A DNA stretch of 13,160 bases from Candidatus Nanohaloarchaea archaeon (GTDB lineage: Archaea > Nanohalarchaeota > Nanosalinia > Nanosalinales > Nanosalinaceae). Location of the stretch: contig JAWOFP010000052.1 of the NCBI GenBank assembly GCA_046497485.1, positions 1 through 13,160 of the forward strand, in the 5' to 3' direction. Below, piece after piece: positions 1 to 3,000 of this stretch. Position numbers: made by a program. The stretch's first letter is position 1, and each line of letters begins with the position of its first letter.

Positions 1-3000
1 AGGCTTAAGGCCTTTCTGCAATCGCCGCTGTTCTCTGCCACGGTTTCAGCGATTTTTTCGATGACTTCTTCTGGTACGGTTCCGGGCCGGAATGCTTTCT
101 TGACTCGGTCTTGGAGAATGTTCTCTAGTTGAGGCGCGTTGTAGGAATGGAATTCAAGCGTCTTACAGCTCAACCGTGACTGGCTTCTGGGATCAAGAGG
201 GATACGGTTCGGATGCTGATTGGAGACCATTAAGAGCCCAATCGAGTTATCGGCTTCTTCATTAATCATTTGAAGATCGTAGATGACCTTGGTCGAGTCT
301 GCGTAGTCGCTTCTGTTGACAGCGGCTAACAGTCTCTTTAGCTCGGATTCATTTGCTCCCCGCATCGTGAATTCGTCTGGAGCAAATTTCAGTAGCAGTG
401 TTTTCCAGGACCAGAGCAGCCGATCTTGTTGTACTTCGCTTATCCCTTCCGCGGCACAGTGGTCGATAAAATCGTGGAGTGATTGGATGTTTTCAGGTTC
501 GATTGTAGTCTCGTCTAGTTTGTCGAGACTACGGTCTACGTCGATGTATTTTGTTGTGGACATAATTCATTTTCACAGTTTCAGATAGAAGGAGAAGCGG
601 GAAAGACACGGTTTCTGTTGCCCTGAATCACCAGGGTTCGATTGGGTAACCACTTAACCCTTAGTTAAATGGCAGGACCCGGATTTGAACCGGGGTCTGG
701 CCGTCCCAAACGGCCAATGATAGTCCACTACACCATCCCGCCAGTACTGTAATTGAATTTGAGGGAAAAAGTCTTTTATACTAAATTTCTAATAGGCCTA
801 AAACTGGTAGAAAATAGGTGGTGAAATTGTTTAGGCCTCCTGTTTTACCTGGGATCTGTTGATTCCGAATCTTTCGTAGAGTCCGCATTTTCCTGTTAAC
901 CCGGTTGCAAGCAGCACTATTGATATTATTCCTAGTAGTGGCGAGTAAATTTCCGGCTGATTTACATAGTTTGCGAGTATTCCAATCGATGTTAGACCAG
1001 TTATTGCTGCTAGAATCACTCTAACCGCTTGATCAGTCTTCCCAATATTTGTTTCCATTAAGCTCCATATATGTTCTTGAGATAATAAGCGTTTCGCTTT
1101 AGAGATAGCATATTAGATGAAAAATTTAATCGGTATCCAATAGAAGCTTAGAACGATCTTTTATACCCCATGAAACTTTGTCACCTTCTTCCAAGTTCAT
1201 TATCGCCGCTAAAGTTTCAGGCAGCTGAACATTGACAAAGGAATTTTCTCCAGGCCTAACTTCTGCTTCTCCTCTATCTTTTGAGGCCTCTTTGAAGCTA
1301 TAGGAGTCGAGCTTGTCGGATGACATTTTCTCCTGAACCGATTCGTTCGAGTCTGTGAACCATATCTGACAGTTCACACCCCGGAAATCCTTAATCCACT
1401 TTAGTTGAGTATGCCTAAGGCCGTCTTTCTCTCCCTTAACCTCAACAAAAAGATAATCGCCATTGTCATCAAAAGCTAGAAAGTCAGGGACCCCAGGCCT
1501 GAACAAGTTCCCCATTTTTTCTACTCCCTGATTTGAGATCCTCTGACTGACCAAGTCACAGGCCTTCGGATACTTTTCCTCGAAATCTTTCAAAATAGCT
1601 GGACTGGTTCTAATTACATTGTCCCAGTTGCTGTCAAGCATGGATTCGACTACCTCTTCAGTCTCAGTCAAAGAGGCCTCTTCCTCAAAAGGAATCATAA
1701 CTAAGTGATATAATCGAAAACTTAACTGAATAACTGATTCGGAATTTTGATAAGTTTTAGCAGCCAATTATTTCCTATGTTGAAGCCTGAACTATTGAGA
1801 TACAGAACCCCTGAATATGATTCAGTTTTGGATGCAAGAGAGAATTTTAAGGAAAGTTATGAGGGTTCTTTAGGCCTAGATTTTGATACCGCTATCGGAA
1901 GATATCCTCCACATTTAGCTGCTGGTGGAATTCAGACAGTTTGGACGATAGAACCAGATAATCTTAGTGCCTCAATAGGAGAGAACCTTGAGGATATAGG
2001 AGATAGGATGCTTGAAGCGACCAGAGAAGATGAGATTGAAGCCAGATTAAAGCATAACCCTGCTCCTCTAGGAGGTAATGATCTCACGGAACAGGATGTT
2101 GAACTTATGGATCTAATGTATCAAACTCTTGGAGAACCTGAACCTATAAGGAAAGAAAATGGTCTATGGAGCAGCGGCCATTTTGGCAGAGAACTGATAG
2201 ATAAGCATTACGCCGAGACAAGTATAGATCTCTAGATGCAATCCTTTATTGAAGCGAACTTTTAAAAAGGCCTGTGAACAATGTAACAATATGACTCACA
2301 GAGCAAAGACCTCCATTACTTCAAAGAGAGTGTCTAGAGCTTCTGCTGTGAGTTCTAACATTAAGTATATATCTAATTTATTTATCCTGTATAACTGATA
2401 CAGGATAAGTAGGTTGAACAAACCTGGCCTGGCTCACAACTCAGTGGGCCTCGGGCAAAAGGATTCAACCGAAAACCGCCGGACTTCTCACCTCAACAAA
2501 CACTTGAACCTTAACAAGGTGATCAATCATAAAATAAGAGCCAATACGCTGCCAAAAAACTGAAAGCCTATACCAAAAAACATATCCACTTTCCTCTCTT
2601 TTTCTTTCAACCGTCCTCGGAAATAACTACACTAGAACCGCATTCCGGACATTCTATTGAATCTGGAAAACTTTTCTCACCGCTATACCAGAAAAAGTTG
2701 CCGCAGCTACTACATTCCAGCTCTAAACTTGAATCAACCATAACAAAATAAAATAGAAATTAAGGAAATTTTGAGGCCTACTCTTCCAAGTTTTCCATCC
2801 TGTCTTCGATCTCTTCCTGGATCTCTTCTCCACTCATCTCCTCTAGATTTCCGATATTGAAGTTTGAGAGATCAATATCGCTGATCTTATCCAGTACCTT
2901 TTGGAGGCCTTCCTCGTTTTCTCCTGAACTCATTCCTCCCACTAACTCAGTTGGGAATGTGACAATCGTGGAGTTTTCTGCTGCGACTGAATCCAGGGTT

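Follow-up and report, generated by a model that had tools for sequence, protein, structure and literature searches.

We identify, in a nanohaloarchaeon of the family Nanosalinaceae, a compact locus that we read, with about even confidence, as a dual-function unit in which a leaderless message for a micro-ORF and a structured RNA are carried by one transcript. The window analysed is a stretch of 13,160 nucleotides (contig JAWOFP010000052.1, positions 1 to 13,160), and all coordinates below refer to it. The evidence supports a stand-alone transcription unit on the + strand with its own BRE/TATA box. An earlier survey had proposed a promoter and a structured RNA at 2257-2496, and both are confirmed. 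The survey's description of the RNA as non-coding is no longer favoured, since the promoter geometry, the openness of the frame, its in-frame variants, its stops and its composition speak for a translated frame of 35 codons. The features of the unit are as follows.

2257-2270, + strand: BRE/TATA promoter box AACTTTTAAAAAGG, with the TATA 8-mer at 2260-2267; kept in all aligned copies.
2291-2398, + strand: leaderless 35-codon ORF MTHRAKTSITSKRVSRASAVSSNIKYISNLFILYN followed by a TGA stop (2396-2398); indicated by frame openness, leaderless geometry and composition.
2295-2352, + strand: P1 hairpin within the ORF, 2295-2301 pairing with 2346-2352 around a variable insert; all 7 of 7 pairs covary.
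2384-2391/2399-2406, + strand: near-invariant 8-bp hairpin, ATCCTGTA with TACAGGAT; its 7-nt loop carries the stop.
2408-2411, + strand: invariant AGUA immediately 5' of the long stem; candidate strand of a sarcin-ricin/loop E motif.
2412-2470, + strand: long interrupted stem of three helices and 21 pairs, with loop CAACUCAG at 2437-2444.
2471-2474, + strand: GAAA immediately 3' of the long stem; candidate partner strand of the sarcin-ricin motif.
2475-2598, + strand: tail rich in A and C and poor in G and T; most other genera have one of about 190-235 nt.
2516-2524, + strand: orphan Shine-Dalgarno (SD) motif AAGGUGAUC, which no start codon follows.
2545-2553, + strand: conserved tail block TACGCTGCC, present in the short-tail copies and in three long-tail genomes.
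2599-2607, + strand: oligo-T (TTTTT C TTT), a probable archaeal terminator and the first run of at least 5 T past the start.

The promoter geometry is that of a leaderless message. From the end of the TATA box to the start codon (ATG or GTG) the distance is 22-24 nt in all 44 copies examined; in leaderless archaeal mRNAs the start codon stands where transcription begins, some 22-27 nt past the TATA box. TATA-like 7-mers before the source genome's own long ORFs peak at a matching offset. Transcription would begin at the ATG or no more than 2 nt from it, in which case the RNA would be a leaderless mRNA. At the other end, the boundary of 2496 given by the survey appears to be set too early: the transcript probably extends through the tail with its SD motif to the T-run at 2599-2603. 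On this basis the unit would measure some 310-313 nt (2291 to about 2603), and in most other genera about 365-400 nt. An equivalent T-run lies behind the tail in 24 of the 25 loci examined, and the next gene in the window is convergent to the unit. The 20 sequence runs that carry the interval 1700-3700 are all DNA metagenomes. One conserved, expressed intergenic RNA of 266 nt, STRG.4577.1, has been described from a nanohaloarchaeon in passages that print no sequence (PMC7002113).

The RNA structure is strongly conserved and covaries. RNAalifold on 26 copies gave 36 pairs with double changes in 19; in a set of 41 distinct copies the paired share of cells is 97.3%, and compensatory double changes occur at 21 of the 36 pairs. 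None of 500 shuffles reached any of these measures, and controls in which the structure was slid along the alignment were only 27-45% paired. The P1 helix reaches about 10 pairs in many copies. The 8-bp hairpin is paired in 99.7% of cells, with double changes at 3 pairs in divergent copies. The helices of the long stem are 97.6-99% paired, with double changes at 11 of the 21 pairs, and the loop CAACUCAG is invariant except for a C-to-A change at one position in three copies. The complement of this loop, CTGAGTTG, was sought in the rRNA of an assembly without a 23S. The + strand proposed earlier is borne out by G-U pairs compatible with that strand only (UG in 38 of 41 copies at one pair, GU in 24 of 41 at another), and the MFE z-score is -4.71 on the + strand compared with -2.81 on the - strand. 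An alternative helix, CCAAUCU/AGGUUGG, was rejected: it is 84% paired without covariation, and 417 of 500 shuffles did equally well.

Known RNAs do not account for the locus. As the survey had stated, the element belongs to no Rfam family: among 4227 families there were no matches in the window at the gathering score, at E<=10 the interval 2150-2800 returned only mir-724 (14.8 bits against a cut-off of 83), and seven homologous loci gave nothing at E<=1. Neither RNase P RNA model (RF00373, RF02357) matches the locus. Genuine RNase P RNAs (84-118 bits) lie at other loci of five genomes that carry the element (G003, G004, G034, G043 and G022), and since they coexist with it, we gave up reading the minus strand as an RNase P P4 region. 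The SRP RNA (RF01857) of the source genome lies on another contig, C59, with 105 bits. ARAGORN found no tRNA-like domain in the window.

The frame at the 5' end is maintained to a degree that the fold alone does not explain. Among 46 distinct copies, 40 have exactly 35 codons, all of them open; five have other in-frame lengths (30, 33, 38, 55 and 55 codons, that is, -15, -6, +9, +60 and +60 nt relative to the 35-codon form), and only one is broken, by a 1-nt deletion. A 34-codon variant is also on record. Grouping the copies into clusters below 70% identity gives 21 clusters, none of which has lost the open frame; shuffles of each are open with a frequency of only 0.11-0.34. The joint log10 P of -13.9 (P of about 1e-14) is overstated because the copies are related. 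Of the other two frames, one is interrupted by stops in all 21 clusters and the second in 17 of them. The stop itself is held in the loop of the 8-bp hairpin, which ends in TGA, TAA or TAG among copies, so that all three stop codons occur at one position. Divergent paralogues also retain the frame; one uses a TAG stop, and in another the hairpin loop is longer by 3 nt and the stop falls 3 nt later. A read-through into the in-frame continuation, open from 2399 to 2563 in the source genome, was considered and rejected, as the downstream frame ends differ among copies. Sequence so poor in T is in any case poor in stops.

Composition points in the same direction. Base usage in the frame differs by codon position (chi2 95.6, P 2e-18), and this 3-periodicity persists in the 32 most variable frame columns (P 1.3e-4), compared with P 0.08 in the tail as a control. 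Aspartate and glutamate together make up 1.7% of the peptides; a different frame would give 11.3%, and the proteome has 18.7%. The peptide is basic, rich in Ser, Thr and Asn and almost without acidic residues; its N-terminus is variable and its C-terminus conserved, with ILY at positions 32-34 in 40 of 40 copies. The want of third-position bias noted by the survey is real: in 15 independent pairs, the first, second and third codon positions carry 74, 102 and 99 differences, and pN/pS is 0.67 over the whole frame, where structure also limits silent sites, and 0.53 in its unpaired linker. A conserved protein would leave a different pattern. The weak bias speaks for loose constraint on the residues and does not imply an unread frame. 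The frame, length and composition of the peptide are under selection, the exact residues hardly so, and the 5' third of the RNA is very probably translated.

Searches with the peptides returned little. Pfam gave nothing below E 0.1, and in the Atlas the best score was 0.81, the level of chance. Of five peptides looked up in a protein collection, the four of 35 residues were absent and one 55-residue variant was present without a name; a word-index search returned only this variant and one 77-residue relative, also unnamed.

The tail departs in composition from the background: A makes up 0.40, C 0.29, G 0.11 and T 0.20 of it, where the background values are 0.27, 0.24, 0.23 and 0.26. It has no run of 4 or more T ahead of the terminator, and its mean predicted unpaired probability is 0.65, compared with 0.38 in the remainder of the unit. 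The SD motif within it is identical to the genome's own SD consensus and complementary to the 3' end of the source genome's 16S rRNA (GGATCACCTCC), and the 5-mers most enriched before ATGs in that genome are AGGTG and GGTGA. Of 21 cluster representatives, 16 have GGTG[AG] in their tails where 1.15 would be expected, and the motif stands at a fixed distance from the 5' end across copies. Pairing is predicted to be stronger at the SD motif than elsewhere in the tail (unpaired probability 0.36 versus 0.65). The block TACGCTGCC lies at a similar distance from the core in the short-tail copies and in the three long-tail genomes. A second small frame behind the SD motif was rejected, having no consistent start codon or peptide, as were C/D-box and H/ACA readings of the tail made by eye, in which the boxes are not conserved.

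The two sets of letters that flank the long stem deserve separate mention. AGUA is invariant in 43 of 43 aligned copies and retained in divergent paralogues, and the GAA of the GAAA is invariant in the same 43. AGUA/GAA is a canonical sequence of the sarcin-ricin motif (PMC1865062). The likeness here is one of letters and order: AGUA, a helix and GAA follow one another as they should, directly flanking the G-C closing pair of the long stem. A full motif would add non-canonical pairs, a bulged G and a second flanking helix. The base of the long stem is best described as a candidate sarcin-ricin motif.

The element is confined to one family and unevenly distributed within it. BLAST finds it in 25 of 49 other Nanosalinaceae genomes. 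A covariance model built here returned the spread that the survey had reported, namely 28 of 70 genomes of the order (27 of the 49 other Nanosalinaceae and the source genome) and 14 of the 21 genera of Nanosalinaceae, with 0 of 20 genomes in the four other families. A bare pattern of the invariant letters found the identical 28 genomes, against 1 of 70 for the pattern read backwards, and an exact-motif scan located the element in complete, named nanohaloarchaeal genome records. The multiple nearby copies noted earlier also reappear, as tandem copies in three genomes (G019, G027 and G028), of which the second in G019 and the third in G028 are decayed; the source genome has a single copy. Gene neighbourhoods differ as claimed: flanking ORFs within 1.5 kb are common only to copies of one genus. 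The suggestion that the element is mobile or dispensable holds in its second half only. It is patchy within genera and absent from 7 Nanosalinaceae genomes at least 90% complete, one of them closed, and is therefore dispensable. No viral contig contains the invariant motif, no integrase or transposase lies within 1.5 kb at 22 loci, and the unit has no terminal repeats, all of which tell against mobility. A search of the source genome for a DGR-like template or an antisense target elsewhere gave best non-self matches of 12-18 nt with E 0.24 or worse, and both ideas were dropped.

If the RNA is made with these ends and its frame is translated, the dual-function unit could work as follows. A ribosome reading the 35 codons must melt P1 and the 5' arm of the 8-bp hairpin, so that translation and the P1/hairpin fold would be mutually exclusive. 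P1 starts one base past the ATG, and so near to it the helix could hinder leaderless initiation. The ribosome would terminate in the loop of the 8-bp hairpin, 13 nt before the long conserved stem. The conserved core lies downstream of the stop, and its covarying structure exceeds what coding would require; it would be the sequence-specific part, most likely bound by a conserved partner, whether a protein, the ribosome or the unit's own peptide, and the unstructured A/C-rich tail would display a consensus SD motif able to pair with the 3' end of 16S rRNA.

Several other explanations have to be weighed against the dual-function reading. The locus may be an ordinary small-protein gene, with the 35-residue basic peptide as sole effector and the hairpin, long stem and tail as a 3' UTR; such a UTR would serve stability, termination or autoregulation. 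Every coding signal applies to it, and the composition of the peptide is under selection. We consider it possible though doubtful, because the supposed UTR contains the best conserved part of the unit, with loop and junction letters invariant across 14 genera and in divergent paralogues, while the residues of the peptide drift, and because an SD motif at a fixed distance would be unexpected in a passive UTR.

An unlikely alternative, in our judgement, is a regulatory leader or ribosome-arrest sensor, in which the act of translation matters and the peptide does not. The downstream fold, and with it the exposure of the tail and SD motif, would depend on a ribosome that pauses or terminates in the hairpin loop. 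It would account for the variable N-terminus and fixed ILY end of the peptide and for the stop held inside the hairpin loop. The unstructured, C-rich and G-poor spacer followed by an SD motif resembles the tna leader, and a basic, acid-free nascent chain suits slow passage through the exit tunnel. There is, however, no target to regulate: no frame follows the SD motif, a T-run closes the unit behind it, and the neighbouring gene runs convergently. In addition, we know of no Rho factor in Archaea, and the alternative helix CCAAUCU/AGGUUGG does not covary.

We regard as quite unlikely, but worth stating, that the RNA is a ribosome-engaging RNA or RNP peculiar to Nanosalinaceae. Here a ribosome would load at the 5'-terminal AUG and come to rest against the sarcin-ricin-flanked helix, parked there by the stop in the invariant hairpin; the orphan SD motif, in a tail that is otherwise without structure, would keep hold of the 16S rRNA at its 3' end. 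The RNA might then sense the state of translation, or else serve as a decoy for ribosomes or a means of their hibernation, and its own basic peptide might complete the device. If true, it would be a functional analogue of bacterial ribosome-targeting RNAs in a tmRNA-less, genome-reduced symbiont.

A purely non-coding structured RNA, whose 5' ATG and open frame would be by-products of structural constraint, agrees with several observations: the core is conserved far above the peptide (mean column identity 79% versus 65%), P1 covariation drags residues along (for example, Thr/Ser at codon 2 is matched by Ser/Thr at codon 21), and third positions show no excess of change. Structure alone does not account for a frame open in every cluster, nor for the in-frame indels, the three stop codons at one loop position, or the 3-periodic composition with its frame-specific avoidance of Asp and Glu, and this reading now seems very unlikely to us.

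Little probability likewise attaches to a selfish module of the type I toxin-antitoxin kind, in which a toxic small peptide would be encoded in a highly structured mRNA. The frame of fewer than 60 codons, the structured RNA with its long untranslated part, the tandem and partly decayed copies, the patchiness within genera and the poorly conserved flanks in the window would all suit it. The peptides, however, are polar and basic and contain no hydrophobic run long enough for a membrane helix; the unit has no conserved antisense TATA box save the palindromic sense box; pairing of the 5' and 3' ends (-3.6 kcal/mol) is no stronger than the mean in shuffles (-3.9 kcal/mol), with p<0.05 in 0 of 36; and the positions of the element are stable within genera. 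Finally, a DNA-level element, with the perfect inverted repeat ATCCTGTA-N7-TACAGGAT as a protein binding site or mobile-element end amid neighbourhoods that vary between genera, is scarcely credible and already largely refuted by G-U pairs and compensatory changes in four further helices, which suit a one-strand RNA. The lack of terminal repeats, of viral contigs with the motif and of nearby integrases or transposases also speaks against it, as does the single copy in the source genome.

DPANN archaea have hardly been explored for their RNA biology, and the unit is well delimited and strongly conserved. One stretch appears to be under two codes at once, as the frame stays open while its residues drift and the helices covary across the same frame. 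Should translation be confirmed, the dual-function reading would provide a clear archaeal dual-function RNA and a compact system for the interplay of a leaderless ribosome, a hairpin-buried stop and an orphan Shine-Dalgarno motif.

Comparison with known systems helps to place the unit. In tmRNA, a structured RNA engages ribosomes and carries within it a short frame that stops in a hairpin loop; the element here has no tRNA-like domain by ARAGORN, its frame begins at a 5'-end ATG, and to our knowledge no tmRNA is known in Archaea. The type I toxin mRNAs hok and fst are long, heavily folded messages with a small frame that encodes a membrane helix. Our unit has in common with them the small frame within much folded RNA, the tandem copies, the decay of some copies and the narrow, patchy spread, whereas our peptide is polar and basic and the unit has neither an antisense promoter nor a fold-back of its ends. 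In tnaC and ermCL, a peptide with variable N-terminus and fixed C-terminus ends near an RNA structure, which is followed by a G-poor unstructured spacer and an SD motif. The same layout of frame, stop, spacer and SD is seen here, except that the SD motif is without a following gene and the unit closes with its own terminator. The bacterial dual-function RNAs RNAIII/hld, SgrS/SgrT and SR1/SR1P are short transcripts in which a small frame is translated and a conserved, structured portion of the RNA works in its own right, and the nanohaloarchaeal unit likewise joins a frame and a conserved structure. The bacterial frames lie inside the transcript and are led by an SD, and the targets with which the RNA portion pairs are known; in this DPANN archaeon, by contrast, the frame is leaderless at the extreme 5' end, overlaps covarying helices and ends in a hairpin loop.

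The spacer holds a real, new and family-specific structured RNA unit, laid out in the window as follows:

2257-2270, + strand: BRE/TATA promoter box AACTTTTAAAAAGG
2291, + strand: ATG of the micro-ORF, a 35-codon frame
2295-2301 with 2346-2352, + strand: helix P1
2384-2391 with 2399-2406, + strand: 8-bp hairpin, its loop holding TGA at 2396-2398
2408-2411, + strand: AGUA
2412-2470, + strand: long interrupted stem with loop CAACUCAG at 2437-2444
2471-2474, + strand: GAAA
2516-2524, + strand: purine island (A/G)AGGUGAU, the sole one in the A/C-rich tail that follows GAAA

RNAalifold on 26 copies gave 36 pairs, with compensatory changes in 19. 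The alignment was then enlarged by searching public genomes and metagenomes for the exact motif, which added copies from 23 metagenome loci and 21 genome records (titled as nanohaloarchaea in 20 cases and as 'uncultured archaeon' in one). When 41 distinct copies are compared, standard pairs fill 97.3% of cells and both partners have changed in 21 of the 36 pairs; no shuffle out of 500 matched any measure, and sliding the partners by 1-3 columns lowered pairing to 27-45%. Since G-U pairs are frequent, the RNA is assigned to the + strand (folding z = -4.71, versus -2.81 on the - strand). A covarying hairpin lies directly 3' of the apparently leaderless start codon, an invariant hairpin encloses the stop codon, and a conserved stem begins 13 nt past the stop. 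Invariant AGUA and GAA strands close this long stem, and AGUA/GAA is the canonical sarcin-ricin motif sequence (PMC1865062). The locus matched no Rfam family, and tests for membership in curated RNA families were negative throughout.

BLAST matched a 244-nt stretch in 25 of the 49 other Nanosalinaceae genomes. Of 70 genomes from the order Nanosalinales, a covariance model built on the 115-nt core picked out 28 as carriers (27 of the 49 other family genomes and 14 of 21 family genera), with none among 20 genomes from the other four families. An invariant-letter pattern (AGTAGG ... CAACTNAG ... YGAAA) selected the identical 28 genomes, versus 1 of 70 for a backwards control. Seven of eight single-contig genomes have the element and seven family genomes with a completeness of 90% or more do not, so it is widespread but dispensable. 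The genome under study carries a single copy. Elsewhere, tandem copies of the whole unit lie 0.5-1.5 kb apart (G028:C60:1370-3218, G027:C70:1657-2288, G019:C1:601919-603542 and metagenome loci L066/L067), one genus also has paralogues of a second type, with 33-34 codons, and two copies are decayed, one without promoter and ORF and the other without the tail.

The survey's finding described this RNA as non-coding, which is probably wrong: by the sequence evidence, the 5' third of the unit is very probably translated. The TATA 8-mer ends 22-24 nt before the start codon in all 44 copies with promoter sequence (GTG replaces ATG in one), and TATA-like 7-mers before long ORFs of the same genome peak at this offset (9 and 8 hits versus 0-4 elsewhere), so that the spacing, as read from sequence, is that of a leaderless mRNA. 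Exactly 35 codons are found in 40 of 46 distinct copies, all 40 open; five others have 30, 33, 38, 55 and 55 codons and stop at the same loop position, and in one copy, from a metagenome, a 1-nt deletion disrupts the frame. The two 55-codon frames (metagenome loci L070:448-612 and L074:448-612) result from an exact 60-nt in-frame insertion that folds as two hairpins, the second covarying between the two loci, and the L070 product, an unnamed entry, is the sole peptide of the family found in the protein collection. Divergent paralogues keep the frame at 33, 34, 34, 35 and 38 codons. The stop of one is TAG, which means that TGA, TAA and TAG are all seen at the loop position, and in one the loop is 3 nt longer and the stop 3 nt later.

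The copies form 21 clusters that share less than 70% identity over nt 10-90. In every cluster the frame is open, versus shuffle probabilities of 0.11-0.34 each; the joint log10 P of -13.9 is overstated, as related clusters are only partly independent. Stops interrupt the other two frames in 21 and 17 of the 21 clusters. Base composition follows codon position (chi2 95.6, P 2e-18), and still does so when restricted to the 32 columns that vary most (P 1.3e-4); for the tail, taken in the same phase as a control, P is 0.08. Asp and Glu make up 1.7% of the peptides; the proteome has 18.7%, and a translation of another frame 11.3%. Ser, Thr, Asn and basic residues are abundant. Other results speak against a conserved protein. 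Across 15 independent close pairs, codon positions 1/2/3 hold 74/102/99 differences and pN/pS is 0.67 (0.53 in the unpaired linker), and peptide searches, including Pfam, Atlas and the protein collection, returned no family or relative. We interpret this to mean that it matters that the frame is read, how long it is and what its composition is, while most of its residues matter little.

The 3' boundary proposed at 2496 is also too early. After GAAA, the + strand of the window has A 0.40, C 0.29, G 0.11 and T 0.20 (background 0.27/0.24/0.23/0.26) with no T-run of at least 4 before 2599-2603, and the unit probably ends at this T-run, a putative terminator about 105 nt beyond 2496. In most other genera the equivalent T-run lies 175-236 nt past the core; for the copies most similar to that of the window, the distance is 98-134 nt. 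Structure prediction leaves the tail largely unpaired (0.65 versus 0.38 in the rest). Because AGGTG and GGTGA are the top-enriched 5-mers before start codons in this genome (6-7 fold) and its 16S rRNA ends in GGATCACCTCC, the tail island is a consensus Shine-Dalgarno sequence. Of 21 cluster representatives, 16 have the island in their tails (1.15 expected), and all 21 have some Shine-Dalgarno 4-mer there (8.3 expected). The spacing between the 5' end and the island is fixed, at 225-227 nt in 11 copies with a short tail and 313-334 nt in 22 with a long one. The island is an orphan, with neither a start codon nor a conserved frame behind it in the copies compared.

The window is ordinary chromosome, with the following neighbours:

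3-563, - strand: Orc1/Cdc6 fragment
669-743, - strand: tRNA-Pro
1126-1767, - strand: VRR-NUC nuclease
1747-2235, + strand: 162-aa ORF without assigned function, directly upstream of the spacer
2607-2741, - strand: 44-aa zinc-ribbon-like ORF with two CxxC pairs, translated by eye
2778-3632, - strand: SPFH protein
4929-6020: SAM synthetase, 2.3 kb downstream of the element

The 44-aa ORF and the RNA converge, with the stop codon of the ORF directly adjoining the T-run. Genes flanking the element in this genome are poorly conserved even inside the genus: in a comparison with four same-genus genomes and one other family genome, the 162-aa ORF went unmatched, and the SPFH protein has only matches of 31-32% identity, all at other loci. 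Flanking ORFs within 1.5 kb are common to copies inside genera only. Of 99 such ORFs at 24 other loci, 77 from 20 loci were scanned for Pfam; the 22 of L017, L019, L021 and L023, whose flanks cluster with those of L011 and L013, were left out. Those with a family are ordinary chromosomal genes (Nop56/58, MsrA, MsrB, SAM synthetase, TFB, ABC transporters and others). Among L011, L033, L012 and L020, the element adjoins methionine sulfoxide reductase A in one genus and has reductase B as its neighbour in a second, and in one genus a SAM synthetase is found upstream at a distance of up to 0.5 kb; this proximity, like that of SAM synthetase in the window, may be an old synteny remnant or chance. 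The Orc1/Cdc6 fragment, tRNA-Pro and VRR-NUC nuclease sit just upstream of genus-specific ORFs and could mark a tRNA-adjacent variable island; no integrase occurs among the 10 scanned of the window's 22 ORFs of at least 80 aa, all 10 below position 9173.

Nothing points to the mobile element once considered: no viral contig carries the motif, and the 77 scanned ORFs include no integrase or transposase. The observation in the survey's finding is thus borne out and its interpretation holds in part: what stands is the structured + strand RNA with its own promoter, its novelty, its restriction to the family and its varying neighbourhoods.

Because the genome lacks a detectable RNase P RNA, that identity was tested; genuine RNase P RNAs (84-118 bits) lie at other loci of element-carrying genomes. 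The best match here is 14.1 bits at C51:24368-24508, below cut-off, and the same-genus 118-bit RNA gives no BLAST match, with 35 of 50 family genomes matching overall. The 23S sarcin-ricin loop motif was not found in this genome either, and RNase P RNA and 23S are probably missing from the 66-contig assembly. SRP RNA sits on another contig. The genome holds no related or complementary stretch that could serve as target or template, and fold-back of the 5' and 3' ends, an antisense promoter in the unit and an alternative helix that would compete with the long stem all failed when tested.

The best reading, at about even odds, is a dual-function RNA in which one part serves as message and another as structured RNA. 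A ribosome reading the micro-ORF would have to melt P1 and the 8-bp hairpin, and translation and this fold would thus be mutually exclusive. The core, with its invariant loop and junction letters, probably binds a conserved partner. Three narrower variants are possible: the peptide is the sole effector, the act of translation is the signal, or peptide and RNA form one particle.

PMC7002113 reports a conserved, expressed 266-nt intergenic RNA of a nanohaloarchaeon in halite, a candidate for identity with the unit. Among known systems, leader-peptide sensors, tmRNA and type I toxin mRNAs each appear to have single features in common with it; the type I toxins differ in two defining features, a hydrophobic peptide and an antisense RNA, both of which the unit lacks. 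The closest working likeness would be to the bacterial dual-function sRNAs.
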